This document shows positions 3,828 through 60,504 of a DNA stretch of 64,000 nucleotides, one piece after another. The notes beneath the pieces are model-generated. The model searched no databases. It was not told where the DNA came from and was given only the letters and a program-made list of their open reading frames with translations. The stretch lies in NCBI RefSeq assembly GCF_024223415.1, contig NZ_CP100500.1. One strand, written 5' to 3'. Every line of letters starts with the position of its first letter. Position 1 is the first letter of the stretch. This DNA is from Escherichia coli. GTDB lineage: Bacteria; Pseudomonadota; Gammaproteobacteria; Enterobacterales; Enterobacteriaceae. The position numbers were made by a program, and so were the translations under genes.

Positions 3828-3858
3828 ACACAACAACCCTACACAGAGAGACATAATA

Positions 3859-4788: not shown

Positions 4789-4839
4789 TTTGTCTGGAGC
4801 CGCCGTACGGGCGGCTCCCCATAAATAAGGAGCAGGCTG

Positions 4840-6062
4840 ATGTCGCAACCCTTACTGAAAGTAACCGACCTGGCAAAAAGCTTTTCCGGCGTATGGGCGC
4901 TGAGCAGCGCCCAGCTCACCGTCGGCACGGGTGAAATTCACGCTTTGCTGGGCGAAAACGGCGCTGGGAAATCCACGCTGTTGAAGGCACTCGCGGGCGC
5001 ACAGCCACAAACGCGCGGGGAGATCTGGTTCAATGGCGAAACGCTGCCGGTGGACGACTCCCCGGTAGAACGGCAGAACAAGGGCATTATCACCATCTAT
5101 CAGGAATTCAACCTGCTGCCCAATATGACCGTTGCGGAAAACATGTTTCTCGGACGCGAACCGCGTAAACGTAACCTGATCGTCGACGAAAAAGCGGTCA
5201 ATCAGGAAGCGCAGGTGATTCTCGATTATCTGCAGCTGAATGTCGCACCCACCACGCCAGTCGCCCGTCTGAGCGTGGCCCAGCAGCAGATGGTGGAGAT
5301 TGCCCGGGCGCTGACCCTCAATGCCAGGCTGATCATCATGGATGAACCCTCCGCCGCCCTGAGTGACAGCGAGGTGGAAAGCCTGCACCGCGTGGTGCGG
5401 GAGCTTAAAAACCGCGGCGTGAGCATTATTTACGTTACTCACCGTCTGCATGAAGTTTTCCAGCTTTGCGATCGTTTCACCGTTTTCCAGGATGGCCGTT
5501 TCACCGGCACCGGCGCAGTGACGGAGACGAACGTAGAGCAGTTGATCCGCCTGATGGTAGGGCGTGATGTGGCCTTTAACCGCCGCCCTGCCAGCGAAAC
5601 CCACCATGAAGACAAACCTGTCCGTTTGTCGGTGAAGGGGTTAAGCCGGGAAAAACCGCCGCTGGATCCACACGGCATCGCCCTGCATGACATCAGTTTT
5701 CACGTCCATGCAGGGGAAGTTCTGGGTATCGCTGGGCTGGTGGGGGCTGGTCGTACTGAGGTAGCGCGCTGCCTGTTTGGCGCCGACGCCTTTACCACCG
5801 GCAGCTTTGAGCTGGACGGCGTGCCGTACCAGCCGCGTGACCCACTTTATGCGCTGGAGCAAGGGCTGGCGCTGGTGCCGGAAGATCGCAAAAAAGAGGG
5901 GGCGGTGCTGGGTCTGTCGATTCGCGACAACCTGTCGCTCTCCTGCCTCTCCTCGCTGTTGCAGTGGCGCTGGTTTGTGAATACCCGCAAAGAGGACGAC
6001 CTGATTGAGTCCTACCGCCAGGCGCTGCAGATCAAAATGGTCAACAGCACGCAAGAGGTGCG
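4840..6062 (+). pseudogene. sugar ABC transporter ATP-binding protein, 5' part, interrupted by prophage insertion
   Basis: Walker A GENGAGKST, first signature and second Walker A present; homology stops after ...STQEVR at the prophage end; the 3' part resumes at 43682. Confidence 0.85.
6057..6062. repeat. target-site duplication, left copy (GGTGCG; exact length 5 or 6 bp)
   Basis: Both prophage junctions share the octamer AGGTGCGT; duplicated bases flank the element. Confidence 0.6.
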
Positions 6063-6140
6063 TGATGCGCCGCGCGATAAATGCGCTCTATCTTGTGCGA
6101 TAAATGACAACCAATCGGCGTTTCATTATTTGAAAAAGAA
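6063..6140. repeat. prophage end on the gin side (attR-like) with transposase-binding-type motifs
   Basis: TGATGCGCCGCGCGATAAATG...GCGATAAATG plus CGTTTCATTATTTGAAAAAG resembling the Mu end consensus; mirrored at the other end. Confidence 0.6.
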
Positions 6141-6700
6141 TTACATTTCAGGTTGCGTTATGACTGTCCCAGCGGGGTGATAGCGGTAGATCGTTGACAG
6201 TCCAATATCATAGATAATTACCAGCCGCTTTCTGTCATACCCTTTCTGGAGCAATCTTGCGATCTGCTCATGCTGCTCCTTCGTCAGTTTCGGGCGACGC
6301 CCTCCAACTCTCCCTTGTGCTCGCGCAGCAGTCAGTCCTGCCAGCGTGCGCTCAACTATCAGTTCACGTTCCATTTCTGCCAGTGCACCCATCATATGAA
6401 AAAAAGAACCTTCCCATCGGAGTGCTGGTATCGATTAAATCCGTCAGACTGCGAAAATTGACACCTTTTGCGCGTAGCTCTTCTGTGAGCGAAATGAGGT
6501 GTTTCATTCTTCTACCCAACCGTTACAGCTTCCAGACCACCAATGTATCCCCTCTTTTAAGGCACCTTAAAGCGCGTTTCAGGCCTGGTCGTTGCGACTT
6601 AGTTCCGCTCATTTGTCCTCAAAAATTTGTTCACATCCTGCGCACATTAATACATTGCGTTTTGGTCATTTGTTGACACACGTATGTAGCCAATCAGCAT
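6141..6700 (-). pseudogene. gin: Gin/Pin-family serine DNA invertase, inactivated
   Basis: Translation gives MLIGYIRVSTNDQN, CAGCEQIFEDK, RPGLKRAL..GDTLVVWKL, HLISL..GRFFF and the C-terminal HTH in different frames; in-frame TAA, a 7-A homopolymer frameshift (6399-6405) and further indels. Confidence 0.8.
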
Positions 6701-11867: not shown

Positions 11868-13018
11868 TTTTTCTTCTCCTTAATCACCGTCGATGTACTG
11901 CCATCCGGGTGATAAACCGTGAGTTTCTGAGTTTTTTGTTTTTTCCCTCTTGTGACTGGCCCCCGTGCCACTTCCAGCTCTGTGGTGTAGCCGCTGTTAC
12001 GGTCAAACGCATGGCGGGCAGTGGTTATGAGCCATGGCCCGGATAACTGCCCAAAACCCACCAGTTCAATTTTGTTGCCTGCTGTCAGTTGAGGCGTTCC
12101 CGTCAGCGTCAGGGAGCCGTTCTGCTGGTATTCGTTATGTCTGGCCAGTGCTGAATCCGCTTTAATCCGGGCACTGTCCGGGTCGCTGACGCGGCTGTTA
12201 ACTTTAAGTGAGTCAGCGCTGGTAACCTTACCACCTTTGAGCTTTTTGTCGCTTTCACGGGTACCACCATCAGCTTCGTAGACGATCAGTTTTTTACTGC
12301 TGCTTTTCTGGTGTTTTACCTTTGCAGATTTATAGACCCGGTTGATGGTGTCACGCAGGGAAAAGCGGGCCACATCCTGCGGTTTTAACTGCCTGACCGG
12401 CTCCTGACTGCGCAGTGTGGCCAGATGAGAAAAAATCAACTGGTCACTGACCACTTTCACTGCATAACCATACTCGCTGGCCAGCCGGCGCAGAAAACCC
12501 ACGTCGGTTTCAGCATACTGGGTCACCCGGTCGATTCTGATGGACTCAATGCTGCCCACCAGTTTCAGTCGGTGCTTTCTGGCAATCCGCCCCGCAACAG
12601 CTGCCAGAGTGGTGTTCTCAAAACCACGGCTGGATTTAGTCCGCAGAGCACTGTTAACCGAGGTGGCCACCCCACGGATAGCGACAACGGACGCGGGCGA
12701 ACTCACTTCGATCTCGTCTATTGAGAATGTACCGCAGGACAGCAGTTTCTCGCCCTGATAACCCATTTTCAGCGTCAGCGTGTCACCCTTGCCCGGATAC
12801 CACTTATCCAGCCAGCGGCCATCGGTGTCGTCCAGCTCCACCTCAATGGTATCGGACTCATTTTTGATGTTATCGCTCCAGACCACACGGGTGACATAAG
12901 GCGCGATATCAGAGGTGATGTTTTTCTGCAGATACCACATAGTGAACACCGGCGTCAGCACCTCGCTGACGCCGGTTAACGCTGATGTGGCTTGCGCAGT
13001 GCTGTTTATCTCAGCCAT
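11864..13018 (-). CDS. tail/baseplate hub protein (P2 gpD-like, Mu P-like)
   Basis: 384 aa; conserved position after tail protein X. Confidence 0.75.
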   Translation of the reverse strand: MAEINSTAQATSALTGVSEVLTPVFTMWYLQKNITSDIAPYVTRVVWSDNIKNESDTIEVELDDTDGRWLDKWYPGKGDTLTLKMGYQGEKLLSCGTFSIDEIEVSSPASVVAIRGVATSVNSALRTKSSRGFENTTLAAVAGRIARKHRLKLVGSIESIRIDRVTQYAETDVGFLRRLASEYGYAVKVVSDQLIFSHLATLRSQEPVRQLKPQDVARFSLRDTINRVYKSAKVKHQKSSSKKLIVYEADGGTRESDKKLKGGKVTSADSLKVNSRVSDPDSARIKADSALARHNEYQQNGSLTLTGTPQLTAGNKIELVGFGQLSGPWLITTARHAFDRNSGYTTELEVARGPVTRGKKQKTQKLTVYHPDGSTSTVIKEKKK

Positions 13019-43599: not shown

Positions 43600-43681
43600 C
43601 TGTTCACCAGAACCCATGTTAACCCACTCCAATTCGTTATTTATCTCACGGATCCCCCTTCATTTATCTCATGTCTGATCA
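43600..43681. repeat. prophage end distal to gin, with transposase-binding-type motifs
   Basis: Reverse complement reads TGATCAGACATGAGATAAATG...GTGAGATAAATA, mirroring the other end (TGAT, 9 nt, GATAAATG, 15 nt, GATAAAT). Confidence 0.55.
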
Positions 43682-43687
43682 GGTGCG
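43682..43687. repeat. target-site duplication, right copy (GGTGCG)
   Basis: Matches 6057-6062. Confidence 0.6.
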
Positions 43688-44012
43688 TAAGCTCTCTGGC
43701 GGCAACCAGCAGAAAGTTATCCTCGCGCGCTGCATGGCGCTCAATCCACGGGTGTTGATTGTCGATGAGCCGACGCGTGGCATCGACGTTGGAACCAAAT
43801 CGGAAGTGCACCAGGTGTTGTTTGATATGGCGAAAAAGGGCGTGGCGGTGATCGTGATCTCCTCCGATCTGCTTGAAGTGATGGCGGTGTCTGACCGGAT
43901 CATCACCCTTAGTGAAGGCCGGTTAACTGGCGAGATCCACGGTGACGACGCTAACGAAGAACGGCTGATGACGATGATGGCTATCAACCACAACGCCCTG
44001 AACGCGGCATAA
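43682..44012 (+). pseudogene. sugar ABC transporter ATP-binding protein, 3' part
   Basis: Begins in frame with the second ABC signature (LSGGNQQKV) and Walker B (LIVDEPT); continues the ORF broken at 6062. Confidence 0.85.
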
Positions 44013-44023
44013 CGGAGTTTCTC

Positions 44024-45052
44024 ATGACGCAGATGATTCCTAAAACGCAGGTCCCGGTAAAACGCGTCGGACGCATCGATCCCATTGCCTTCTTCGAGCG
44101 CTTCGGGGTACTGATTTTCATGATCCTGCTGCTGATCTTCTTTCAGTCGCAGAACAGTAATTTTTTCTCTGAACGCAATATTTTCAACATCCTGACCGAA
44201 GTCTCCATCTACGGGATCATGGCCGTGGGGATGACCTTCGTCATTCTGACCGCTGGGATCGACCTCTCCGTGGGCTCTATTCTGGCAGTGTGCGCCATGA
44301 CAGCGGCGTACGTGATCAAAGGCGACAATTTCACCACAGTCGATCCGAACGCTTGGGGCGGTATGAGCTGGCTGATTGGGCTGGGGATTTGTCTGACCAT
44401 GGGTACAGCGATTGGCTTCCTGCACGGTCTGGGCGTCACTCGCCTGCGCCTACCACCGTTCATCGTCACCCTTGGCGGGATGACCATCTGGCGTGGTCTG
44501 ACGCTCGTGATTAACGACGGTGCGCCGATTGCCGGCTTCGATCAGGGTTATCGCTGGTGGGGACGAGGGGAATTGCTCGGCATCTCCATTCCGATCTGGA
44601 TCTTCGCCATCGTTGCCATTGGTGGTTATCTGGCACTGCATAAAACCCGTTGGGGGCGCTTCGTCTATGCCATCGGTGGCAACCCGGAGGCGGCACGTCT
44701 GGCTGGGGTAAACGTGAAGCGTGTGCTGGTTAGCGTCTATGTGCTGATTGGCTGTCTGGCGGGGCTGGCGGGCTTCATCCTGAGCGCTCGTCTGGGGAGC
44801 GCTGAGGCGGTTGCCGGGATCTCCTTTGAGCTGCGTGTTATTGCCTCGGTGGTTATTGGCGGCACGTCGTTGATGGGGGGATATGGGCGCATCGGCGGCA
44901 CTATCATCGGCTCCATCATCATGGGCATTCTGATTAATGGCCTGGTACTGATGAACGTCTCGGCCTACTACCAGCAAATTATCACCGGATTAATTATCGT
45001 TCTGGCGGTGGCATTCGACACCTATGCCAAGAGCCGTCGCGGCGCACTGTGA
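44024..45052 (+). CDS. sugar ABC transporter permease
   Basis: 342 aa; multiple TM helices; RbsC-type permease sequence. Confidence 0.85.
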   Translation: MTQMIPKTQVPVKRVGRIDPIAFFERFGVLIFMILLLIFFQSQNSNFFSERNIFNILTEVSIYGIMAVGMTFVILTAGIDLSVGSILAVCAMTAAYVIKGDNFTTVDPNAWGGMSWLIGLGICLTMGTAIGFLHGLGVTRLRLPPFIVTLGGMTIWRGLTLVINDGAPIAGFDQGYRWWGRGELLGISIPIWIFAIVAIGGYLALHKTRWGRFVYAIGGNPEAARLAGVNVKRVLVSVYVLIGCLAGLAGFILSARLGSAEAVAGISFELRVIASVVIGGTSLMGGYGRIGGTIIGSIIMGILINGLVLMNVSAYYQQIITGLIIVLAVAFDTYAKSRRGAL

Positions 45053-45060
45053 GGATCACG

Positions 45061-46194
45061 ATGAAAGAGGTTCGTATTGGATTGATTGGCACCGGGTATA
45101 TTGGCAAGGCGCATGCCATTGCCTATGCCCAGGCACCGACGGTGTTCAATCTGCGCGGCAAACTGGTGCGCGAGATGGTGGCTGAGGTGAACCCGGCGCT
45201 GGCGGCAGAACGCGCGCAGGCGTTTGGCTTCAATCGCTCAACCGGAGACTGGCGGGTGCTCGTGGCCGACCCGGCCATTGATGTGGTGGATATTTGCTCC
45301 CCTAACCATCTTCACAAAGAGATGGCGCTGGAGGCGATCCGCCACGGCAAGCACGTCTATTCGGAAAAGCCGCTGGCACTGAATGCCCACGACGCGCGTG
45401 AGATGGTCGACGCTGCGAAGCGGGCAGGGGTGAAAACGCTGGTGGGTTTCAATTACATGAAAAACCCGACGGCACAGTTGGCGAAAGAGATTATTGCGCG
45501 CGGCGAAATTGGTGAGGTGATCCACTTCTACGGAACCCACAACGAAGACTATATGGCCGACCCGCTTTCCCCTATTCACTGGCACTGTTTTAAAGAGACC
45601 GCCGGACTGGGGGCTCTGGGTGACTTGGCGGCACATATCGTCAATATGGCCCAGTATCTGGTGGGAGAGATTGAGCAGGTCTGTGGCGATCTGAAAATTG
45701 TGGTGCCGGCACGTCCGGCAAAGGCCGGATCGTCGGAAATGGTCACCGTGGAAAATGAAGATCAGGCCCACGCGATGGTGCGCTTTGCGGGCGGGGCGCA
45801 GGGCGTCATTGAAACTTCCCGCGTCGCCTGCGGCCGCAAGATGGGGCTGTCATATGTCATTACTGGTACCAAAGGAGCGATCAGTTTTACCCAAGAGCGG
45901 ATGGCAGAGATAAAGCTCTATCTACATGATGATCCGGTGAACCGTCAGGGGTTCCGGACACTGTTGGTCGGTCCGGCACACCCGGATTACGGCGCGTTTT
46001 GCATGGGCGCAGGTCATGGTATCGGCTTTAACGATCAAAAAACGGTGGAAGTGCGTGATCTGGTAGACGGCATTGCCACCGACGCACCGATGTGGCCGGA
46101 CTTCGAAGAGGGCTGGAAGGTCTCGCGCGTGCTGGATGCCATCGCACTCTCACACCAGCAGGGCCTCTGGCTGAACGTGAATGACATTGTCTGA
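45061..46194 (+). CDS. Gfo/Idh/MocA-family oxidoreductase (inositol dehydrogenase-like)
   Basis: Rossmann motif GLIGTGYIGKAH; GAGGA RBS before ATG 45061. Confidence 0.8.
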   Translation: MKEVRIGLIGTGYIGKAHAIAYAQAPTVFNLRGKLVREMVAEVNPALAAERAQAFGFNRSTGDWRVLVADPAIDVVDICSPNHLHKEMALEAIRHGKHVYSEKPLALNAHDAREMVDAAKRAGVKTLVGFNYMKNPTAQLAKEIIARGEIGEVIHFYGTHNEDYMADPLSPIHWHCFKETAGLGALGDLAAHIVNMAQYLVGEIEQVCGDLKIVVPARPAKAGSSEMVTVENEDQAHAMVRFAGGAQGVIETSRVACGRKMGLSYVITGTKGAISFTQERMAEIKLYLHDDPVNRQGFRTLLVGPAHPDYGAFCMGAGHGIGFNDQKTVEVRDLVDGIATDAPMWPDFEEGWKVSRVLDAIALSHQQGLWLNVNDIV

Positions 46195-46206
46195 AGAGGG
46201 TTCAAC

Positions 46207-48111
46207 GTGGAAAAGCAGTTTGATGTGATATGCATGGGCCGCGTGGCGGTAGACCTCTACAGCCAGCAAATTGGTGCCCGCCTGGAGGATGTGTCGAGCT
46301 TCGCCAAATATCTCGGCGGCTCGTCCGGCAACGTGGCGTACGGTACCGCGCGTCAGGGCTTACGCTCGTCAATGCTGGCGCGCGTTGGCGATGAACATAT
46401 GGGGCGCTTCCTGCGGGAAGAGTTAAACCAGGTGGGCTGCGATACCAGCCATCTGATCACCGATAAAGAACGCCTTACGGCGCTGGTGCTACTCGGCATT
46501 AAAGACCGGGACACCTTTCCTCTGATTTTTTATCGCGATAACTGCGCGGATATGGCGATTACTGCCAGCGATGTGGACGAAAGCTACATTGCCTCCGCAC
46601 GGTGTATTGCCATCACCGGGACTCACCTTTCTCACCCGCAGACCCGCGAGGCGGTGCTGACGGCGCTGAATTACGCCCGCCGTCACGGCGTGCGCACGGT
46701 GCTGGACATCGACTACCGTCCGGTGCTGTGGGGACTAACCTCTCTAGGAGACGGCGAAACGCGTTTTATCGTTGCCGAACAGGTTACCCGTGAACTTCAG
46801 GAGGTGCTACACCTTTTCGACGTCGTTGTCGGCACCGAAGAGGAGTTTCACATTGCGGGGGGCAGCACCGATACGTTGCAGGCGCTGGCGCAGGTGCGCC
46901 ACGTCAGCAAGGCGACACTGGTTTGCAAGCGCGGCGCGCTGGGCTGTTCGGTGTATACCGATGCCATTCCACCTCGGCTGGATGACGGTCTGACGGTGAC
47001 CGGCGTGCGTGTGGAGGTGCTTAACGTCCTTGGCGCGGGAGATGCGTTTATGTCTGGCCTGCTGCGCGGTTACCTGAACGACGAGGGCTGGGAGCAGGCG
47101 TGCCGCTACGCCAACGCCTGTGGGGCGCTGGTGGTCTCGCGCCACGGCTGTGCACCGGCGATGCCGAGCAAAATTGAGCTGGATGATTACCTCTCCCGCG
47201 CCGCGCTCGTTCCGCGCCCGGACATTGACCCGCGTCTTAACCATCTGCACCGGGTGACCACCCGCCGCCGCGAATGGCCGGAGCTGTGCGTGATGGCGTT
47301 CGATCACCGCAGTCAACTGGAAGATATGGCGCTGCAGTGCGGCGCGTCGCTTAAGCGTATTCCGGCGCTGAAACAGCTGATCCTGCAGGCCAGCCGAGAG
47401 GCGGCAAGCTCTGCCGGGCTGGAGGGGAAAGCCGGCCTGCTGTGCGATGGCACCTTTGGTCAGGATGCGCTGAACGCCATTACCGGCGAAGGGTGGTGGA
47501 TTGGTCGTCCCATTGAACTGCCAGGCTCGCGTCCGCTGGAGATGGAGCACGGTAACATTGGTACCCAGCTTATCAGTTGGCCGCAGGAGCATGTGGTGAA
47601 GTGCCTGGTCTTTTTCCATCCGGAAGATGCCCACGGCTTGCGTCTGGAGCAGGAGCAGAAAATCGCCGAGGTGTACCACGCCTGCTGTCAGTCCGGACAT
47701 GAACTGCTGCTGGAGGTGATATTACCCGCCACTATGCCGCGCAGTGACGAACTTTATCTGCGTGCCATTTCCCGCTTCTACAACCTTGGCATTTACCCCG
47801 ACTGGTGGAAACTGCCGCCGCTCTCCGCCGAAGGCTGGACGGCACTGAGCGAGATTATCGCGCGCCGGGACCCGCACTGCCGCGGCGTGGTGATCCTCGG
47901 TCTGGATGCTCCGGCGGAACAGCTGCGTGCCGACTTCAAAGCTGCCGCGGGGCAGGCGCTGGTGAAAGGCTTCGCCGTGGGGCGCACGCTGTTTGGCGAT
48001 GCCTCCCGCGCATGGCTGAAACACGATATTGACGATGCGCAGCTGGTGGCGCGCATCCGGGACAACTACCTGCAGCTTATCGCCTGGTGGCGCGAGCGCG
48101 GACACGCATAA
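46207..48111 (+). CDS. iolC: 5-dehydro-2-deoxygluconokinase (PfkB kinase with C-terminal extension)
   Basis: 634 aa; PfkB motifs (GGxxxN, VLGAGDAF); GTG start with AGAGGG RBS. Confidence 0.8.
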   Translation: MEKQFDVICMGRVAVDLYSQQIGARLEDVSSFAKYLGGSSGNVAYGTARQGLRSSMLARVGDEHMGRFLREELNQVGCDTSHLITDKERLTALVLLGIKDRDTFPLIFYRDNCADMAITASDVDESYIASARCIAITGTHLSHPQTREAVLTALNYARRHGVRTVLDIDYRPVLWGLTSLGDGETRFIVAEQVTRELQEVLHLFDVVVGTEEEFHIAGGSTDTLQALAQVRHVSKATLVCKRGALGCSVYTDAIPPRLDDGLTVTGVRVEVLNVLGAGDAFMSGLLRGYLNDEGWEQACRYANACGALVVSRHGCAPAMPSKIELDDYLSRAALVPRPDIDPRLNHLHRVTTRRREWPELCVMAFDHRSQLEDMALQCGASLKRIPALKQLILQASREAASSAGLEGKAGLLCDGTFGQDALNAITGEGWWIGRPIELPGSRPLEMEHGNIGTQLISWPQEHVVKCLVFFHPEDAHGLRLEQEQKIAEVYHACCQSGHELLLEVILPATMPRSDELYLRAISRFYNLGIYPDWWKLPPLSAEGWTALSEIIARRDPHCRGVVILGLDAPAEQLRADFKAAAGQALVKGFAVGRTLFGDASRAWLKHDIDDAQLVARIRDNYLQLIAWWRERGHA

Positions 48112-48122
48112 TGGAGACGACA

Positions 48123-49013
48123 ATGAGTGTACAACTGGGCATCAACCCGCTGACGTGGACGAACGATGATCTGCCTTCACTGGGCGCGGAGACATCTCTG
48201 GAGACCTGCCTGAGTGAAGGGAAAGAGGCCGGTTTTGCCGGCTTCGAACTGGGCAATAAATTCCCGAGAGAAGCGCGCCTGCTCGGCCCCATTTTGCAGC
48301 GCCACGACCTGCAGTTGGTCTCCGGCTGGTATTCCGGCCGCCTGTTGGAACGCAGTGTAGAGGACGAGATTGCTGCTGTGCAGTCGCATCTGACGCTGCT
48401 GCGAGAGCTGGGTGCAAAAGTACTGGTTTTTGCGGAAGTGAGTGGCTGCATTCACGGTGAGCAGCAGACGCCGGTTCACCTGCGCCCACGTTTCCCGCAG
48501 GAATGCTGGAAAGAGTATGGTGAGAAACTCACCGTGTTCGCCCGCTATACGCAGCAACAGGGGGTACAGATTGCTTACCACCATCATATGGGCACGGTGA
48601 TTGAGTCCGCTCAAGACGTGGACAACCTGATGCTCCACACGGGTGAGGAGGTTGGTTTACTGCTGGATACTGGCCACCTGACCTTTGCCGGGGCCGATCC
48701 GCTGGCGGTGGCACAGCGATGGGCATCGCGCATCAATCATGTTCACTGCAAAGATGTGCGCGCCGACGTGCTGGCGGACGTCAAAAACCGTAAAACCAGC
48801 TTCCTCGACGCGGTGCTGAGCGGCGTGTTTACCGTGCCGGGTGACGGCTGCGTGGATTATCCGCCGATTATGCAACTGCTGAAAACGCAGGATTATCACG
48901 GTTGGCTGGTGGTGGAGGCTGAACAGGACCCGGCGATCGCCCATCCGCTGACCTACGCCCGTCTGGGATATAACAATCTGAGCCGCCTGGCGCGCGACGC
49001 CGGGCTTATCTGA
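48123..49013 (+). CDS. iolE: inosose dehydratase (xylose-isomerase-like TIM barrel)
   Basis: About 296 aa; start at ATG 48123 just after the iolC stop. Confidence 0.8.
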   Translation: MSVQLGINPLTWTNDDLPSLGAETSLETCLSEGKEAGFAGFELGNKFPREARLLGPILQRHDLQLVSGWYSGRLLERSVEDEIAAVQSHLTLLRELGAKVLVFAEVSGCIHGEQQTPVHLRPRFPQECWKEYGEKLTVFARYTQQQGVQIAYHHHMGTVIESAQDVDNLMLHTGEEVGLLLDTGHLTFAGADPLAVAQRWASRINHVHCKDVRADVLADVKNRKTSFLDAVLSGVFTVPGDGCVDYPPIMQLLKTQDYHGWLVVEAEQDPAIAHPLTYARLGYNNLSRLARDAGLI

Positions 49014-49022
49014 GGAGGTGAC

Positions 49023-49844
49023 ATGTCACGTCTGTTATCACGCTGGCAACAGCCGAACGCTGAGGGGCGGACTCAGTCTGTCACGCCGGAAAGCGCCGGA
49101 TGGGGATATGTTGGCTTTGAGGCCTATGAACTTGAGGAAGGGCAGCAACTGACGCTGCCCGCTGTCAGTGAAGAGCGCTGTCTGGTGCTGGTGGCCGGGC
49201 GCGCTTTCATCAGCACTCCTTCTGCACAGTTTATTGATATCGGGGAGCGGATGAGCCCGTTCGAGCGCATCAAACCTTGGGCGGTTTACGTCACCCCGCA
49301 GGAGGCAGTGCAGGTGAAGGCGCTGACGAAACTGGAGCTGGCAGTCTGTACCGCTCCGGGAAAAGGGACATACCCGACGCGGTTGATTGCACCTCAGGAT
49401 ATCGATGGCGAAGCGCGCGGTAACGGCCACAACCAGCGTTATGTGCATAATATTTTGCCGGAAGACAAGCCCGCTGACAGCCTGCTGGTCGTCGAGGTCT
49501 GGACCAACGAAGGCTGTACCAGTTCGTACCCGAGCCATAAACACGATACGAATAACCCGCCTCAGGAGAGCTATCTGGAGGAGACCTATTACCATCGCCT
49601 CAACCCGGAACAGGGGTTCTGCATGCAGCGGGTGTATACCGATGACCGCACACTTGATGAATGTATGGCGGTCTATAACCGTGACGTGGTCATGGTGCCG
49701 AAAGGGTACCACCCGGTGGCGACGATGGCCGGGTATGACAGTTATTACCTTAACGTGATGGCCGGACCAGTACGTAAATGGATATTCACCTGGGAAAAGG
49801 AACACTCATGGATAAACACAGAGTATTCTGCCATTTCTTTATAA
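49023..49844 (+). CDS. iolB: 5-deoxy-glucuronate isomerase
   Basis: 273 aa; IolB-type sequence; last gene of the cluster. Confidence 0.8.
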   Translation: MSRLLSRWQQPNAEGRTQSVTPESAGWGYVGFEAYELEEGQQLTLPAVSEERCLVLVAGRAFISTPSAQFIDIGERMSPFERIKPWAVYVTPQEAVQVKALTKLELAVCTAPGKGTYPTRLIAPQDIDGEARGNGHNQRYVHNILPEDKPADSLLVVEVWTNEGCTSSYPSHKHDTNNPPQESYLEETYYHRLNPEQGFCMQRVYTDDRTLDECMAVYNRDVVMVPKGYHPVATMAGYDSYYLNVMAGPVRKWIFTWEKEHSWINTEYSAISL

Positions 49845-49859
49845 ACTGAGTACCTAAGC

Positions 49860-49886
49860 TAAAAAAGGGGAATGACTCCCCTTTTG
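49860..49886 (+). terminator. rho-independent terminator after iolB
   Basis: AAAAGGGGA-loop-TCCCCTTTT hairpin. Confidence 0.55.
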
Positions 49887-50588
49887 TATAATATGACTCG
49901 ACAATGTTATTTCAAAGTCTGAGTGATGATTTTTCTCTCAGGCAGTATGTTCCTCAATAAGGATGAGAATGTATTCTGTTCATTGGCATATGCATTTATA
50001 TTCTAATGAGCTGAATTTTATAAAGGTTGTGGCTATTCTGGAGTATAAATATTTTTTTTCATTAGACATGAAAGTCTATATGATGGTGTATTAATATTTT
50101 TAGCAATTATGAACGGTTTGTCATGAACCAGTGACCAATTCGTTATGGTGGTGTGCGGTTATATGGTACCTGCTTATGGTGTTATGTTTTTGTCACGTTT
50201 TTGCTGGGGGGTAACATATGTATTGTTTATTTTATATGGTTTATTAAAAAGCTATGAACTCTTTTCAGAGTAATCTCTCACAGTTTTTTTTAATGTTTTA
50301 AAGTTGGTAGTGGTTTGTTATTTTATTTAACTATGTGTTCTTGAAAAAGAACAATGTTTTAAGTGTTGGTTTTTTATCCTTATGATTTTTTAAATGAACT
50401 ATTCAACAATTTACGCTGTGCTGTCCTACAGTTAAAGAGCGTTAATGTAATATCAAATGTAATTATTACGGACAGGCTGAAATCTGGTTGTGTACATCAG
50501 TTGGTGCAAAAAGGCTTATCAAAGTACTGAAATAATAGTAAGTACAATAATAATGATGAATATTGCTACATGGAGATTGGATTTGCCC

Positions 50589-51494
50589 CTATATTTCCAG
50601 ACACCTGTTATCACTTAACCCATTACTGGCTTGCTGCCGTAGATATTCCCGTGGCGAGCGATAACCCAGTGCACTATGCGGATGCCATTCGTTATAATGC
50701 TCGAACGCCTCTGCAAGGTTCTTTGCTGCCGTTAACCCGTCTGGTTTGGGCATGACACTGATGTAGTCACGCTTTATCGTTTTCACGAAGCTCTCTGCTA
50801 TGCCGTTACTCTCCGGACTCCGCACCGCCGTGCTCTTCGGTTCAAGCCCCAACATCCGGGCAAACTGCCGTGTTTCATTAGCCCGGTAGCATGAACCATT
50901 ATCCGTCAGCCACTCTACTGGAGACGCCGGAAGCTCGTTGCCGAAGCGGCGTTCCACCGCTCCTGGCATGACGTCCTGTACTGTTTCACTGTTGAAGCCG
51001 CCCGTAGTGACCGCCCAGTGCAGTGCCTCACGGTCACAGCAGTCCAGCGCGAACGTGACTCGCAGTTTTTCTCCGTTATCACAGCGGAACTCGAACCCGT
51101 CAGAGCACCATCGCTGATTACTTTCTTTCACAGCCACTCTGCCTGTATGTGCCCGTTTCGATGGCGGTACAGCAGGTTTTCGCTCAAGCAACAGCGCATT
51201 CTGGCGCATGATCCGGTAAACACGTTTGGCATTGATCGCAGGCATACCATCAAGTTCGGCCTGTCTGCGAAGCAGCGCCCATACCCGACGATAACCATAC
51301 GTGGGCAGCTCTCCGATAACATGGTGTATACGGAGAAGCACATCCGTATCATCAGTGTGACGACTGCGGCGGCCATCCATCCAGTCATCGGTTCGTCTGA
51401 GAATGACGTGCAACTGCGCACGCGACACCCGGAGACAACGGCTGACTAAGCTTACTCCCCATCCCCGGGCAATAAGGGCGCGTGCGCTATCCAC
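50589..51494 (-). CDS. insD: IS2 transposase OrfB (DDE domain)
   Basis: 301-aa IS3-family integrase-core sequence. Confidence 0.85.
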
Positions 51495-51817
51495 TTTTTT
51501 GCCCGTCCATATTCAACGGCTTCTTTGAGGAGTTCATTTTCCATCGTTTTCTTGCCGAGCAGGCGCTGGAGTTCTTTAATCTGCTTCATGGCGGCAGCAA
51601 GTTCAGAGGCAGGAACAACCTGTTCTCCGGCGGCGACAGCAGTAAGACTTCCTTCCTGGTATTGCTTACGCCAGAGAAATAACTGGCTGGCTGCTACACC
51701 ATGTTGCCGGGCAACGAGGGAGACCGTCATCCCCGGTTCAAAGCTCTGCTGAACAATTGCGATCTTTTCCTGTGTGGTAAGCCGTCTGCGTTTCTCCGGT
51801 CCTAAGACATCAATCAT
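51452..51817 (-). CDS. insC: IS2 OrfA (HTH protein)
   Basis: [12 protein letters not shown]... HTH/leucine-zipper protein overlapping OrfB. Confidence 0.85.
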
Positions 51818-52030
51818 CTGCTCTCCAATGACTAGTCTAAAAACTAGTATTAAGACTATCACTTAAATAAGTGATACTGGTTGTCTGGAGATTCAGGGGG
51901 CCAGTCTAGAGATATAAAGAGCGTCTAGCTCCGGATATATCTTTGACACTACGACAGTACTTGCAAAACGGGGTTGGTAATGCTGCCAACTTACTGATTT
52001 AGTGTATGATGGTGATTTTAAGGTGCTTGC

Positions 52031-52306
52031 GTGGCTTCCATTTCCATCAGATGTCCTTCCTGCTCCGCTACTGAAGGCGTGGTGCGTAACGGCAAAAGCA
52101 CTGCCGGACATCAGCGCTATCTCTGCTCTCATTGCCGTAAAACATGGCAACTACAGTTCACTTACACCGCCTCTCAGCCCGGTACGCACCAGAAAATCAT
52201 TGATATGGCCATGAATGGCGTCGGATGTCGCGCCAGTGCACGCATTATGGGCGTTGGCCTCAACACGGTTTTACGTCACTTAAAAAACTCAGGCCGCAGT
52301 CGGTAA
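52031..52306 (+). CDS. insA: IS1 InsA
   Basis: 91-aa zinc-finger protein typical of IS1. Confidence 0.85.
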
Positions 52307-52728
52307 CCTCGCGCATACAACCGGGCAGTGATGTGATTGTCTGCGCTGAAATGGACGAACAGTGGGGCTACGTCGGTGCTAAATCACGTCAGCGCTGGCT
52401 GTTTTACGCGTATGACAGGATACGGAGGACGGTTATGGCGCACGTATTCGGTGAACGCACTCTGGCCACACTGGAGCGTCTTCTGAGCCTGCTGTCGGCC
52501 TTTGACGTGGTGATATGGATGACGGATGGCTGGCCACTGTATGAATCCCGCCTGAAGGGAAAGCTGCACGTAATCAGCAAGCGATATACGCAGCGAATTG
52601 AGCGGCATAACCTGAATCTGAGGCAGCACCTGGCACGGCTGGGACGGAAGTCGCTGTCGTTCTCAAAATCGGTGGAGCTGCATGACAAAGTCATCGGGCA
52701 TTATCTGAACATAAAACACTATCAATAA
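52225..52728 (+). CDS. insB: IS1 InsB (expressed as an InsAB' frameshift fusion)
   Basis: Overlapping -1 frame ORF with IS1 transposase sequence. Confidence 0.8.
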
Positions 52729-52743
52729 GTTGGAGTCATTACC

Positions 52744-53432
52744 AGGAACGAGTACAGGAAAAATTCAGTTCTTTTTTAATTGCCTTTAAAGATGGTGTCA
52801 TCGGAGGGATACTGTCAGGTATTACCACAACGCTGTTAAATATATTCCTGACGACGGAAAGAATGATTGTCCGGCTTATCAGGGAAATGTGGAACAACCT
52901 CGTTCAGGCCTTTAAAGTCCTGGTATTTAACCCGGAGGGATTATCGCCGGGGCAGTTAGCCAAAGCGGTCACTAAACTGATAGCAGCAGGTGTGGCTGTT
53001 GCCGGTGGGGTGATGATAAATGAGGCGATGGCGCAGATCCTTATTTTTCCATTTGGTTCAGAGCTTGCTGCCTTTTGTGGTGCGCTGACGACAGGTATTC
53101 TCGGGCTGGTGATGAATTATTATCTCGAATATAGCGAGGTTATGCAGCGGGTATGGGCATTTCTGGACAAATTTAAGGACAAATTCCAGCGGTCACTGGA
53201 ATACTTTCAGGCAGTCAATGCTGAACTTGATCGCTATCTTGTGGAACTTACTGCACTGGAATTTTCTGTTGATGCTGCCGCGTTAAATCATTTTTCACTT
53301 CATCTGGATAGCGTAAACAGTGAGATAGAGCGCGGACTTCTGCTGAGAGAAGAAGTCAGCCGACGAGGGATTGCGTTGCCGTTTGAGTCAGGAAATGTGG
53401 CTTCTGTTCGTGACTGGTTAAATAAGCGATGA
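52744..53432 (+). pseudogene. 3' fragment of a gene truncated by IS1
   Basis: Reading frame is open from the IS1 boundary; no start codon or RBS until internal ATG 52863. Confidence 0.5.
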
Positions 53433-53695
53433 AATTACACCCTCCATTTCCCTGTAACCAGTGTGGGGCCTGTTGTCGTCATGTCAACAGGGCGGGTGAA
53501 ACGCAATGTCTGGATCGTGGTGACGGTATTTGCCGTCACTATCAGACTGATTCTCATTTGTGTGCAATTTATGATAAACGCCCACAGATTTGCCGGGTTG
53601 AAGACCAGTATTTACTGAATTATCAGTCTCAGTACAGCTGGCAGGAGTTTATTGCATTAAACCAGGCCGCCTGCCTTATTCTGAATAAACTGTAA
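53429..53695 (+). CDS. small Cys-rich protein (CxxCxxCC motif)
   Basis: 88 aa; CNQCGACC ... CAIY pattern typical of small metal-binding proteins. Confidence 0.5.
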   Translation: MKLHPPFPCNQCGACCRHVNRAGETQCLDRGDGICRHYQTDSHLCAIYDKRPQICRVEDQYLLNYQSQYSWQEFIALNQAACLILNKL

Positions 53696-55771: not shown

Positions 55772-55867
55772 TTCATTAAAGTAATTTACTTCGCTATCCT
55801 TTTTCCAGTTACTCACAAAGAAAAATATTCAGAAAATAATTCCCGGGTTGGCAGCCCGGGATGATTA

Positions 55868-56143
55868 CTATTTTAATGGATTGTTAATCTTTGCATATTC
55901 AAACGGGCTGATACATTGTTCTCTGTTCGCATCCAGAAAATCTGCCCACCACTGTAGCATCAGTCGACGTTCTTCCAGATGTTCTGCTTTATGGATATAC
56001 GCAGCACGTACACCATTACGCTCCTGATGACTCATCTGACGTTCCACTGCATCGCGGGACCACAAACCTGATTTAATCAATGCACTGCACGCCATCGCCC
56101 GGAATCCATGGCCACAGACCTCTTCCTGCGTATTGTATCTCAT
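55868..56143 (-). pseudogene. C-terminal remnant of a tyrosine integrase
   Basis: ..GHGFRAMA..RQMSH..R..YIH..LQWWADFLD.. parallels the C-terminus of the intact integrase at 59068-60252; no N-terminal domain. Confidence 0.6.
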
Positions 56144-56451
56144 CAGTCTCAGTGCGTTATTGACCGTATTTTAACTAACGAGCTTGTGCCTGATTACCAA
56201 TAATTATCAGTTCATATTTTATGCAGACTTGTGCCAATCACTTGTTTTGAAAGAGGTTCTAAGATTCGTTGCATGCATTCTTGACCCTCAATGGTAATGT
56301 CTCGTTAAATATGATAGATATTAGCCGTAATTTTATTTTAGCGGGGTCGGTAAATTGGGGTGGAATTAGTCGATAAAAATATTAGAATACACTATTTTGC
56401 AGGCAAAATAGTGATATGATACATTTTTGTGTAAATTTATAAGGAGATAAG

Positions 56452-57375
56452 ATGGATAAGTTAAGGGCGCTAATTAGCCGAGCATCTAAGCTTTATAACA
56501 GGAATATAGATCATCTTCCAATAACTTTAGAACTAATCGAGTATTCAATGGGGCTTTTGGATAAGAAAGCAAGTTACGGTTATTTTGGTTCATTTGAAGG
56601 GAAAAAAGAAATAGACTACTATGCATTCTTTAGTAATAACGAGATCTCAAGACCTATTAGAGATGATTTATATATCAGAGATGTAAGTATCTATAAGAAA
56701 TTAAGTGACAACTTGTTTGTCGATTTAAAACAGTTCCGTTCTGTCTGGAGTTCAGATAAATCAATAGTAGCAAATAAAATTATATATACATCAGTTATGT
56801 CAGTTGCCTGCGCTTTTGATTTGTGGAAGAAAGGTAGTAGAAAAACACCTGGTACATTTTTTGAGATTTATATTGCTGCTCTATTGAAAGTAATGCTTCC
56901 GAATGAAGTTTTTTCAAAGCATATCCCATTGATTGATTCGATGAAAAATGATGAGGGGCTTAGAGATTCGGCGAATATTTCTACTGATCTGGTAATAAAA
57001 AGCCGCGCAAATGTTAATCGCGGAGTAGTTATCCCATTAAAAATAACAACAAGAGAGCGTATTGTTCAGCCATTTGCTCATCAACGAATTCTGGATTCAT
57101 ATTTTGGGAATGGTTTTTTTCATTCTTTCTTGGCATGCATTAGTGAAACTCAACAAGATAAGTTTAATCGAGAAGTAAACCATATATGTGTTCCTGGAAC
57201 AATACGATTGTATCAGAAATATTTATCAAGTATTGCGGGAATATATTATTGTGATATTCCAGAGAGATATTTACAAGCTGATTTGACCAGTATAATACCG
57301 GTCAAATCAATGGGGGAGTTTTTGTCAGATATAAATGATTTTTTTATGGAAATAGCTGAATCTGATCCTCATTAG
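56452..57375 (+). CDS. hypothetical protein, candidate restriction endonuclease
   Basis: 307-aa ORF in AT-rich DNA, convergent with and overlapping the cytosine-5 methyltransferase gene by 32 bp; no recognisable family by eye. Confidence 0.6.
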   Translation: MDKLRALISRASKLYNRNIDHLPITLELIEYSMGLLDKKASYGYFGSFEGKKEIDYYAFFSNNEISRPIRDDLYIRDVSIYKKLSDNLFVDLKQFRSVWSSDKSIVANKIIYTSVMSVACAFDLWKKGSRKTPGTFFEIYIAALLKVMLPNEVFSKHIPLIDSMKNDEGLRDSANISTDLVIKSRANVNRGVVIPLKITTRERIVQPFAHQRILDSYFGNGFFHSFLACISETQQDKFNREVNHICVPGTIRLYQKYLSSIAGIYYCDIPERYLQADLTSIIPVKSMGEFLSDINDFFMEIAESDPH

Positions 57376-58468
57376 TCTTCTCAACAGGGTTTTGATAGTT
57401 GCTTTTTTCATAATTTTGTTTATTAAGACATTTAATAATTGCTGTTCCTGCCGCTTTAGCTACTGGCGGCGGAACAGCATTCCCAATTTGTAATCTTATG
57501 GCATCTCTTTTACCATAAAACCGATAGTCAACAGGGAATCCTTGTAACATTGCACCCTCTCTAAGAGTTATAGCTCTGTTCTGAGAAGGATGTCCATATC
57601 TGCCTCTGGTGAAGCTATCAAATCCCGCAGTAATTGTTGGACATTGTTTATCCCATTCAAGCCTCCCGTACACGTCAGGCCATCCGCCGGAGTTAGTATC
57701 AACATTTTGATGGCATTTTAGTCTCAAATCATGCGGAATATCCTTCCACCCCCCTCCGGGGGGAACATAAGAGAACCTTTCTTCATTAAGTTTAGTTATT
57801 TTACACTTAATATGATTAGGTATCTCGCAATGTTCACTATAATCGTCAGGAGGGGGAGGAAGATTACCAATAACATCTTTGATAGTAAGTTCGTTATCAA
57901 CTTTCTCCAGTTTAGGATAATCGCAGTTCTCAGATTTATCTATTCCGATCATAATAAAGCGCCCTCTCTTCTGGGCAACGCCAAAATCTGAAGAGCAAAT
58001 GAAAAAAGTGAATATGTTATATTTAAATAATTTCTCTTTTACTTCTCTTATTAAATCCTGTCCTCTCTTTTGTCCAAAAATTTCGACATTTTCAAACAGA
58101 AAAGCCCGGGGGTTTAGCTCATTTACCAGTCTGGAATATTCCAGTACTAACTTATTTCTTTCATCATTTAACAGATGAGCTCCTTTTCTTTGTTTGGAAA
58201 AGCCCTGACATGGCGGCCCGCCGCTAAAAAGATCCAGTCGGGAGTTTATTCCCGCTTTGTCTAAAAGAAACTTACCGCTAATAACCGAAGCATCTAATTG
58301 AAGACAATGCCCTCCAAGATTATTATTATATGTTTTCACGGCATCCTCATTGATATCAAATGCTAATTTGATATCGAACCCCGCTTGCTTAAGCCCAAGG
58401 GACATTCCTCCAGCACCACAGAAGCCTTCAATGCATGTAAGTTTTTGAACAGTATCAGCTTTACTCAT
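57344..58468 (-). CDS. DNA cytosine-5 methyltransferase
   Basis: Motif I FCGAGG, motif IV PPCQGFS, motif VI ENV, motif VIII QKRGR, motif X GNAV. Confidence 0.85.
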   Translation of the reverse strand: MSKADTVQKLTCIEGFCGAGGMSLGLKQAGFDIKLAFDINEDAVKTYNNNLGGHCLQLDASVISGKFLLDKAGINSRLDLFSGGPPCQGFSKQRKGAHLLNDERNKLVLEYSRLVNELNPRAFLFENVEIFGQKRGQDLIREVKEKLFKYNIFTFFICSSDFGVAQKRGRFIMIGIDKSENCDYPKLEKVDNELTIKDVIGNLPPPPDDYSEHCEIPNHIKCKITKLNEERFSYVPPGGGWKDIPHDLRLKCHQNVDTNSGGWPDVYGRLEWDKQCPTITAGFDSFTRGRYGHPSQNRAITLREGAMLQGFPVDYRFYGKRDAIRLQIGNAVPPPVAKAAGTAIIKCLNKQNYEKSNYQNPVEKTNEDQIQLFP

Positions 58469-59067
58469 GTTAACTCACTTAATGCTCATTAATCTTCCTA
58501 GTATAACGATATTTATCAAACAAAACCATAGCTACATTTTAAACTAAAAGTAGCTAATAAGAACGATTGAATGACTTAATTTATATAAATAAGATATCCA
58601 GTATTGATACATCATGTGTTCAGCATGATGTATGTGCAACTGAAGCATCATTCGAAGTTTTCCTCAATATTCATATTCTGCATATATGCTATTCCAGATA
58701 ACTGGCCTGCCATTCGATATTATGACGAAGCCTGATTATGCTAATGCATCATACGCTATAACCCGGTATTTATGGCCACAGATATTTTGGATTGTGTCAT
58801 CTCCTGTAACCTTAAGGGGGGGATTGACGGTGTTTTATCTGCTTGCCCTGTGAGTACATGCATTTCCATAACATTCAGGCTATTTTCACCTACCGGAATC
58901 TGAAGTTCAGTCAGTATGCCTGCAACCTGTTTATGGTGTTGAACAGGGTTCAATAGCAGAATTTGGGCTTCTGGAGTGAGTTCAGAATGTGTTGGTAAAT
59001 CAAGCCACAATAAAACCGTTCAGTGGTCTGACTGGATGGCTCGTTATTATATCCACAGAGCTCTCAT

Positions 59068-60252
59068 TTATAGTGCGCACCTGGAGAGCGAATCAATGTA
59101 ATCTGCGTACCATTGCATCATTTCACGACGACCATCCAGGTACTGCGCATGGTTATAGGTACCCCTGATGGAATTTTTATCCACATGAGCTAACTGCATT
59201 TCAATCCAGGCAGAATTAAAGCCCTGTTCGTGCAGAATGGTACTCATGGTGTGACGAAAACCATGACCGGTTGCCCTGCCATCGTAACCGATACGTTTGA
59301 GCACCATATTGATGCTGGCTTCGCTCATTGGCTTGTTGATATCACAACGTCCCGGAAAAACCAGCCGGTATTGCCCGGAGAAAGTTTTGAGCTGCAGCAG
59401 AATGTCAGTGGCCTGTCGTGACAGTGGTACGACATGTTTACGTCGCATTTTCATGCGGCTTTCAGGGATTGTCCACAGGGCATTATCAAAATCAATTTCT
59501 GACCATTCAGCGAACCGTAGCTCAATGGTTCTGAGACCTGTCAGAAGCAGAAGATTTGTCGCCATGCGGGTAACAGGACTGCCATGATATTCAGCGAGCT
59601 TCCGGATAAAAGCTGGGAGCTCATCTGCTCTCAGGTGAGGGAAATGCGCCGCTTTTGGTGCCGCCAGTGTACTGGTCAGTTCAGATGCCGGATTGACAGT
59701 GGCTCGTCCGGTGGCGATGGCATAACGAAAAATCTGATTACAGTATTGGCGTACCTTACGAAGTTTCTCCAGCGAGCCACGTTTTTCTATGCGGCGCAGA
59801 ATTTCCAGCATTTCCAGCGGGAGGATATCAGTAACGCTTCGTTTGCCCAGATACGGAAAAATATCTTTATCCAGAGCCTCCAGTACGCTTCTGGCGTAAC
59901 TTTCAGACCATGACAAAGATTTATGCTGGTGCCATTCCGTAGCGAGGGCATGGAACGTATTGGTGGCAGAGATTTTCTGAGTGAGTTTTTCCTTTCGCTT
60001 CTTTTCGCCCGGGTCACCACCTTCGGAGATGATTTTTCGGGCATCGTCGCGTTTGATTCTGGCCTCAGCAAGGGAGACGTCGGGATAGACGCCGAGGGCC
60101 AGTTTTTTCTCTTTTCCTGCTATCCGGTATTTAAGCCGCCAGTAGCGGGCTCCCGTGGTTTTTACCAGCAGATATAAACCACGTTCGTCAGAGAGTTTAT
60201 AGTCTTTTTCTTTAGGTCTGGCTGTTTCGACCTGTCTGGCTGTAAGTGCCAT
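59068..60252 (-). CDS. P4-type tyrosine integrase
   Basis: MALTARQVETARPKEKDYKLSDERGLYL... N-terminus and HxxR...Y catalytic region; AGGAG RBS; adjacent to the tRNA-Phe 3' end. Confidence 0.85.
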   Translation of the reverse strand: MALTARQVETARPKEKDYKLSDERGLYLLVKTTGARYWRLKYRIAGKEKKLALGVYPDVSLAEARIKRDDARKIISEGGDPGEKKRKEKLTQKISATNTFHALATEWHQHKSLSWSESYARSVLEALDKDIFPYLGKRSVTDILPLEMLEILRRIEKRGSLEKLRKVRQYCNQIFRYAIATGRATVNPASELTSTLAAPKAAHFPHLRADELPAFIRKLAEYHGSPVTRMATNLLLLTGLRTIELRFAEWSEIDFDNALWTIPESRMKMRRKHVVPLSRQATDILLQLKTFSGQYRLVFPGRCDINKPMSEASINMVLKRIGYDGRATGHGFRHTMSTILHEQGFNSAWIEMQLAHVDKNSIRGTYNHAQYLDGRREMMQWYADYIDSLSRCAL

Positions 60253-60428: not shown

Positions 60429-60504
60429 TGGTGCCCGGACTCGGAATCGAACCAAGGACACGGGGATTTTCAATCCCCTGCTCTACCGACTGAGCTATCC
60501 GGGC
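60429..60504 (-). tRNA. pheV: tRNA-Phe (anticodon GAA)
   Basis: 76-nt sequence identical to E. coli tRNA-Phe with CCA end; named pheV from yqgA/speC synteny. Confidence 0.95.

Follow-up and report, generated by a model that had tools for sequence, protein, structure and literature searches.

An IS1 element without a target duplication joins DNA from two places in a genomic island of Escherichia coli, which marks a deletion or rearrangement that truncated a gene. On one side of the element is the noncoding DNA that follows an inositol (iol) cluster, and on the other side is the 3' part of a gene for a 523-aa protein that has been matched to a candidate phage defence system. The joint is most likely a secondary deletion scar in a mosaic island and not an original acquisition boundary, and an IS1-associated deletion in some form is its very probable origin. 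Two routes would lead to such a deletion, and we commit, tentatively, to a one-step adjacent deletion by intramolecular transposition of IS1 over recombination between two IS1 copies.

The window is the whole stretch of DNA analyzed here (64 kb; 64,000 nucleotides). In it, a tRNA-Phe gene at positions 60429 to 60504 is followed by yqgA (DUF554) and then by speC (the latter identified by alignment to strain E14), which places the island at pheV. IS2 and IS1 lie 67 bp apart inside this pheV island. The features of the region are listed below; the coordinates given in an initial annotation of the sequence were all exact.

49860 to 49888: intrinsic terminator hairpin of iolB, an inverted repeat (GGGGA-loop-TCCCC) with flanking A and T runs, invariant in four strains
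49887 to 50577: AT-rich noncoding spacer, 691 bp, 30.5% GC
50573 to 50577: GAGAT target duplication of IS2, left copy
50578 to 51908, minus strand: IS2 (IS3 family), apparently intact, 1,331 bp
51909 to 51913: GAGAT target duplication of IS2, right copy
51909 to 51975: native iol-flank spacer, continued, 67 bp, cut off by IS1
51976 to 52743, plus strand: IS1 (IS1F-like isoform), apparently intact, 768 bp, no target duplication
52744 to 53432, plus strand: 3' remnant of the 523-aa gene, codons 296 to 523
53429 to 53695, plus strand: intact gene for an 88-aa CxxCxxCC (YkgJ-type) cysteine-cluster protein (Pfam PF03692, E = 1.8e-5)

AT-rich spacer downstream of iolB

About 690 bp of AT-rich sequence with no credible ORF had been described after iolB, and this description holds, as the 691-bp block has no conserved reading frame, no Rfam match, and no protein homologue. 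Its longest ORF is 55 aa. Positions 49845 to 50577 correspond to the initial 733 bp of a 1,168-bp unannotated spacer in iol-bearing relatives. In ATCC 8739, EC15, and TUM9803, iolB is followed by this spacer (1,168 to 1,169 bp), a convergent gene for a 141-aa hypothetical protein, a MarR-family gene, and IS debris. A low-GC module (spacer, 31.5%; 141-aa gene, 36.6%; MarR gene, 37.1%) is found beside the high-GC iol operon, the genes of which have a GC content of 58.5% in the window (positions 43681 to 49844). The window retains the first 795 bp of the spacer, divided by IS2.

Positions 49845 to 50577 were matched in 46 of 5,426 complete E. coli genomes at 97% to 99% identity, with no annotated feature under the match. 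Chromosomal iolB with at least 99% identity was found in 46 genomes, at 50 places. These counts equal those for the AT-rich block, which thus appears to be a constant component of the iol island in chromosomes. No match to the spacer was obtained among 72,556 plasmids at blastn sensitivity, and a plasmid-borne iol cluster, the iolB of which is 86% identical, has different DNA downstream of iolB. A 24-mer from the block was absent from 100,044 species-representative genomes.

Four strains with ~99% identity over the block have four 1-nt homopolymer indels, which break the frames of its three longest ORFs (42, 43, and 55 aa), and a 471-bp part of the block is absent in the 33F4 lineage. A hidden gene was considered on the basis of EC15, in which a 1-nt deletion merges the 55-aa ORF and an 81-aa ORF into a 123-aa ORF, and was rejected; when compared with 5.8 billion proteins, this 123-aa ORF matched one 75-aa E. 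coli fragment only and had no homologue outside E. coli. A structured RNA or sRNA was also rejected, based on the lack of Rfam matches at E ≤ 1, the fold scores, and the presence of the iolB hairpin as the sole terminator-like signal detected. This hairpin consists of a 12-nt inverted repeat (49860 to 49871 and 49877 to 49888) with a T-run after it. The folding of the block was unremarkable, with z-scores of -0.7 for the plus strand and -2.1 for the minus strand (20 shuffles). Judged from its sequence, the AT-rich block is the noncoding flank of the E. coli chromosomal iol island with no detectable function, and it is best left unannotated.

IS2 is a private simple insertion

The perfect GAGAT duplication around IS2 had been taken to indicate a simple insertion, and the comparison with genomes free of the IS confirmed this. 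The 67-bp spacer segment between IS2 and IS1 is present in 46 genomes, 100% identical in most of them and always contiguous with the AT-rich block. At this empty site, no IS is present, and in each genome checked the two matches, to the AT-rich block and to the 67 bp, have exactly 5 bp in common, as exemplified by CP080260 (2764581 to 2765314 and 2765310 to 2765376). GAGAT occurs once at the empty site of ATCC 8739 (...CTACATGGAGATATAAAGAGC...), where the 67 bp occupy positions 12001 to 12067 of the locus. The occurrence of an empty site with a single GAGAT in 46 genomes identifies IS2 as a private simple insertion. None of the other genomes searched carries an IS2 at the window's site; in TUM9803, an IS2 is located ~1.2 kb further along.

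IS2 orfA (51452 to 51862) and orfB (50589 to 51494) are on the minus strand and overlap by 43 nt, and the A6G slippery site lies in the overlap (minus strand CAAAAAAGTGG around positions 51484 to 51494). The element is 99.3% to 99.6% identical to annotated IS2/IS3-family copies, the copy in SFE8 being 99.6% identical. The insertion of IS2 into the AT-rich spacer would have been an event separate from that of IS1, and it may have come before or after it.

IS1 lacks a target duplication

The two ends of IS1, GGTAATGCTGCCAACTTACTGAT and GGTAATGACTCCAACTTATTGAT, form terminal inverted repeats (GGTAATG...) that match at 19 of 23 positions. The element contains insA (52031 to 52306; 91 aa) and, in the -1 frame, insB' (52225 to 52728), with the A6C slippery site (TTAAAAAACTC) near position 52288. 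The presence of both ends and of intact insA and insB' frames was counted toward an active element. The flanks of IS1, AACGGGGTT and AGGAACGAG, share nothing, and there is no direct duplication of 8 to 9 bp, in agreement with the initial annotation. A hidden duplication was sought by scanning the 30 bp on each side of the two ends for 5- to 11-bp repeats and was rejected, the only repeat being AGTAC at 51956 and 52751, which abuts neither end.

The closest full-length match to this IS1 was an IS1F-like copy linked to fecI (99.0% identity), with none higher in the 5,426 genomes; the identity to an IS1B copy was 93.1%. Nucleotides 1 to 459 are identical to those of the fecI-linked copy, and eight differences are located within nucleotides 460 to 573. 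At six of these eight sites the window IS1 is of the IS1A/B type, and the remaining two are private. The fecI-linked copy is a decayed pseudogene and is an outlier with respect to all other isoforms at nucleotides 531 to 573. The last 195 bp of IS1 are invariant among isoforms, and the isoforms themselves are mosaic. A chimeric IS1 was thus considered and rejected as proof of recombination between two copies, the mismatch map being suggestive and not diagnostic. The InsB of the window IS1, which has a private V71M change, was not on record in an exact look-up.

The truncated gene and its neighbors

An ORF open from the IS1 boundary had been noted as belonging to a truncated gene, and the gene could now be recognized. 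The reading frame runs uninterrupted from 52746 to a stop codon at 53432, with the first in-frame start codon at 52863, and it corresponds to residues 296 to 523 of a 523-aa protein with 227/228 identity. At the nucleotide level, the right flank of IS1 is equivalent to nt 884 to 1572 (the last 689 nt) of a 1,572-nt gene, intact copies of which are present in SFE8, E14, and 33F4, and the flank from 52742/52744 on is 98.4% to 99.7% identical to SFE8 and E14. The N-terminal 295 codons of the gene have been lost, and its 5' half and upstream partner genes are absent from the 64-kb window. Positions 52744 to 53432 are best annotated as a pseudogene fragment.

The gene order in SFE8 and E14 is as follows: outer-membrane protein (OMP), HTH-WYL-WCX regulator, 359-aa protein, 523-aa protein, 88-aa CxxCxxCC protein, small ORF, phosphoethanolamine transferase (ept), TPR protein, integrase, and tRNA-Phe. 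The 88-aa CxxCxxCC gene adjoins the truncated gene downstream in all related loci. In the window, a restriction-modification-like pair occupies the place of the TPR gene.

The full-length homologue in SFE8 (locus positions 5120 to 6691) matches the PADLOC candidate PDC-M40B (E = 2.6e-42; residues 11 to 424), and the upstream 359-aa protein matches PDC-M09A (E = 1.9e-22). The PDC systems have been described by their authors as candidates for phage defence (Payne et al., bioRxiv 10.1101/2024.01.29.577857). No Pfam family was identified in the 523-aa protein at E ≤ 0.01, and no relative was found in the PDB. A sub-threshold match to GmrSD_C (E = 0.015) and a DH...N...H motif near residues 110 to 150, within the portion lost from the window, hint at a possible nuclease domain in the N-terminal region, which we offer as a lead only. 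The protein has a weak His-Me/HNH-like signature in its N-terminal part and a membrane-spanning C-terminal half. The family is widespread in Gammaproteobacteria and conserved in length, and the cluster of intact proteins has ~2,000 members; the label "cobalamin adenosyltransferase," which is frequent in this family, is unsupported.

Other lesions in the 523-aa gene

An exact look-up, a procedure that selects broken genes by construction, placed the residual 189-aa ORF of the window (52863 to 53429) in several contexts across 82 blocks from public assemblies. At least seven independent lesions leave this same residual ORF, including that caused by the window's IS1 with its breakpoint at nt 883/884 of the gene. 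The others include (i) an IS-free deletion joint at nt 830; (ii) in CP025903, an IS1A-type copy in inverted orientation at nt 939, 57 nt further downstream and joined to a fimbrial operon; (iii) three frameshift alleles, of which one has lost a nucleotide at nt 969, one has gained a nucleotide at nt 791, and one has several indels; and (iv) a nonsense allele at codon position 289.

It is doubtful that inactivation of this PDC-M40B-type gene is recurrently selected for in E. coli: given the biased look-up and the ~2,000 intact cluster members, the lesions are an observation and not evidence of selection. If such selection were operating, the intact effector could carry a cost or be autotoxic, with the CxxCxxCC and ept genes downstream of it being retained.

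Sequences joined by IS1

The left flank of IS1 is native iol spacer. In ATCC 8739, EC15, TUM9803, and 33F4, the same sequence continues with 373 bp of spacer, the 141-aa gene, and the MarR gene, whereas the window lacks the next 373 bp of spacer and all that lies beyond. In 33F4, both flanks are found in one tRNA-Phe island, on the plus strand and in the orientation seen in the window, 103.4 kb apart. The iol cluster and spacer of 33F4 end at 5148157, the right flank aligns from ~5251568, and tRNA-Phe is located at 5257583. The intervening 103 kb contain IS elements, contact-dependent-inhibition genes, type VI secretion remnants, and a Qat anti-phage system, as well as a second integrase, a resistance region, and sucrose genes. 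In EC15, the iol, ept, and OMP genes are within one pheU island, ~32 kb across. Neither 33F4 nor EC15 has IS1 at the window's junction sites. Cutting out the interval between the flanks from a 33F4-like arrangement gives the structure of the window without any inversion, which points to a secondary deletion in a mosaic island.

These collinear comparators are at pheU. The window is at pheV; its iol cluster contains a Mu-like prophage and is separated from the tRNA gene by only 10.6 kb. A relative with the same Mu-like prophage insertion was sought as a pre-deletion comparator, and none was found. Two junction queries showed that neither IS1 junction is spanned by any of the 5,426 complete E. 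coli genomes, and no IS1 with a 9-bp duplication was present at either junction in these genomes. The junction 40-mers were also absent from the metagenome and species-representative collections.

The IS1 joint had initially been interpreted as a junction between differently acquired segments, and this interpretation stands only in part. The modules are indeed separable, as the iol module occurs without the ept module at tRNA-Arg in ATCC 8739, and the ept/PDC module occurs without iol at pheV or pheU in E14 and SFE8. However, both modules are collinear in one tRNA-Phe island in 33F4 and partly so in EC15.

If the joint were nevertheless a primary acquisition boundary, the iol segment would have interrupted the 523-aa gene on its arrival as an IS1-bounded composite, as a cointegrate, or as an imported recombinant tract, and the 5' half of the gene would lie past the left edge of the window. 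The two sides of the joint differ in GC content (58.5% versus 45%), each has been found alone at other tRNA loci, and the distal end of the island is outside the window, which stops short of it (the 3' repeat of tRNA-Phe was not found in the window). On the other hand, an inserted segment would need to be longer than 50 kb, the missing 5' half is nowhere in the 64 kb, and the modules are already collinear in the IS1-free arrangements of 33F4 and EC15. Moreover, the iol side stops arbitrarily within its own spacer, with the 141-aa and MarR genes gone, which resembles loss and not arrival. We thus consider an acquisition boundary at this position improbable.

Origin of the IS1 joint

The initial annotation had proposed an IS1-associated deletion or rearrangement, which is upheld by the absence of a duplication and by the origin of the flanks from two places. 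We find it hardly credible that the joint is an assembly artefact created by a mis-join of two contigs via the repeated IS1. Neither junction was present in any other sequence searched, and the InsB sequence is not on record, as such a mis-join might entail, but a random one would be unlikely to bring together two segments that belong to one type of island and to orient them correctly relative to each other, and the neighboring IS2, which is also a repeat, was resolved with a perfect duplication.

IS copies without a target duplication arise by adjacent deletion or by IS-IS recombination (PMC11708052). The two give an identical product, and therefore the sequence cannot separate them. We infer ancestral collinearity of the modules and a transpositional rather than a recombinational deletion. 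In the ancestral island, the iol module and the pheV-proximal module would have been co-oriented, the former with its 3' flank of AT-rich spacer, 141-aa gene, and MarR gene and the latter with the genes for OMP, the HTH-WYL regulator, the 359-aa, 523-aa, and CxxCxxCC proteins, ept, and integrase and with tRNA-Phe. An IS1 resident at one of the junctions would then have transposed intramolecularly (replicatively) into the other site, deleting the intervening DNA in one step. The deletion may have removed tens of kilobases, up to ~103 kb if the ancestor was 33F4-like, and would have left a single IS1 with nonmatching flanks. The regulator, the 359-aa gene, and codons 1 to 295 of the 523-aa gene would have been lost with it, leaving the candidate defence operon dead. 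Points against this account are the pheU location of the collinear comparators, the absence of IS1 with a 9-bp duplication from either junction in the 5,426 genomes, and the position of the distal island end outside the window, which leaves some likelihood to an IS1-bounded composite arrangement.

Alternatively, RecA-dependent homologous recombination could have taken place between an IS1 copy in the iol spacer and a second, directly repeated copy in the 523-aa gene, so that one, possibly hybrid, IS1 remained. This route is possible, with less confidence than the one-step deletion. In its favor, the nonmatching flanks belong to a single type of island and share one orientation there; missing duplications are often due to IS-IS recombination (PMC11708052); and the same gene has been struck independently by IS1 in another strain (CP025903). 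The mosaic IS1 sequence, fecI-like over nucleotides 1 to 459 and with mostly IS1A/B-like differences at 460 to 573, also fits a hybrid, but the divergence of the fecI pseudogene at 531 to 573 and the invariance of the last 195 bp make the pattern nondiagnostic. Furthermore, for this route IS1 must already have been inserted twice in one orientation, and no genome searched has either insertion.

By the adjacent deletion that we favor, a tRNA-Phe island would have been remodelled by IS: a single IS1 event would account for the loss of tens of kilobases, including a WYL-regulated candidate phage-defence operon, and for the placement of the inositol module beside the integrase-proximal genes.

Comparison with known systems

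The formation of deletions by IS1 is classically known from the gal region of E. coli. The window resembles IS1-promoted deletion in that one intact IS1 is located at a novel joint without an 8- to 9-bp duplication and in that the flanks are collinear but distant in a relative; it differs from the classical case in that the parental IS1 position was unobserved among the 5,426 genomes. IS2 agrees with simple transposition in its length, imperfect terminal repeats, A6G frameshift, and 5-bp duplication, only its insertion site being private.

In the full-length loci related to PDC-M40 and PDC-M09, the HTH-WYL-WCX regulator precedes the candidate genes, whereas the window keeps only residues 296 to 523, without the partner gene and the regulator.

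In Salmonella, the sRNAs RssR and STnc1740 are encoded in the iolB 3' untranslated region or intergenic region just downstream of iolB (PMC6288124). The AT-rich block is alike in position, being immediately 3' of iolB in an inositol island. However, the E. coli cluster is laid out differently, and the block has no Rfam match and tolerates indels and a 471-bp deletion, and its equivalence to RssR/STnc1740 is unsupported.

As a whole, the locus resembles other mosaic pheV and pheU islands, with a P4-type integrase beside tRNA-Phe and a cargo of ept, OMP, defence-like genes, iol, and IS debris. The same modules are found at both loci, and the window differs in the distance between iol and the tRNA gene, in its restriction-modification-like pair, and in its Mu-like prophage. 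The locus is fully explained by known IS biology as a case of ordinary island decay, with no new mechanism or element type.

Gene set and independent breakage of the 523-aa gene

An uncharacterised operon is located at positions 3049 to 6691 of the SFE8 comparison locus (L002), and an identical gene set is present in comparison locus L003 and in L011 of strain 33F4. Its members are as follows:
HTH-WYL-WCX regulator
359-aa protein (PADLOC candidate PDC-M09A)
523-aa protein (PADLOC candidate PDC-M40B)
88-aa CxxCxxCC protein

The length of the 523-aa family is conserved in Enterobacterales, Aeromonas, Pseudomonas, and bee-gut bacteria, and its widespread label, "cobalamin adenosyltransferase," is a name that no domain backs. 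The 523-aa gene is also broken, independently, in other E. coli strains (loci L015, L017, L018, L020, L021, and L023). In CP025903.1 (L018, 5170 to 5937), an inverted IS1A-type element breaks the gene 57 nt further 3' than the breakpoint in the window, and at position 5828 of L015 the break is an IS-free deletion joint; further broken alleles among other E. coli loci are due to a frameshift or nonsense change. A residual 189-aa ORF is common to all of these broken alleles.

Spacer ORF in EC15 and the pheU island of 33F4

In the spacer 3' of iolB, an A-run is one base shorter in EC15 (L005, 11792 to 12163) than in ATCC 8739 (L004, 11791 to 12163). This deletion joins the 55-aa and 81-aa spacer ORFs into a 123-aa ORF, in EC15 only; the positions of the IS2 insertion and of the IS1 junction both lie within this ORF. 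Homologues beyond E. coli were looked for and none were found, so the 123-aa ORF is probably meaningless.

The pheU island of the calf isolate 33F4 exceeds 115 kb (L009 to L011; CM147849.1, 5140000 to 5262000) and carries in tandem iol, contact-dependent-inhibition genes, the Qat anti-phage system, a second integrase, a resistance region (class 1 integron, floR, and sul2), and sucrose genes. The reading frame of the iol ABC ATPase gene in this island is interrupted by a stop.

Interval between ept and the integrase

The stretch of the window from ept (phosphoethanolamine transferase gene) to the pheV integrase (55805 to 59080) is without the TPR gene, whereas SFE8, E14, and 33F4 have this gene in the interval. 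In place of the TPR gene, the window has the following features:
55868-56143, integrase fragment
56452-57375, + strand, 307-aa ORF with no Pfam match
57344-58468, - strand, C5 cytosine DNA methyltransferase gene

The last two may constitute a restriction-modification pair.

Mu-like prophage in the iol cluster

6064-43680, Mu-like transposable prophage (37.6 kb) interrupting the iol-cluster ABC-transporter ATPase gene

The prophage encodes an rve transposase, an AAA_22 ATPase, Gam, GemA, a Dam-type methylase, and tail fibres, and its early region is 96% identical to Escherichia phage PhiKM. The iol clusters of ATCC 8739, EC15, and TUM9803 are uninterrupted, and this insertion was found in no other complete genome searched. 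Both prophage ends start with GAT, and repeated GATAAATG motifs are present at each end. The flanks are a perfect duplication, AGGTGCGT (6056 to 6063 and 43681 to 43688), of 8 bp, whereas the target duplication of phage Mu is 5 bp.
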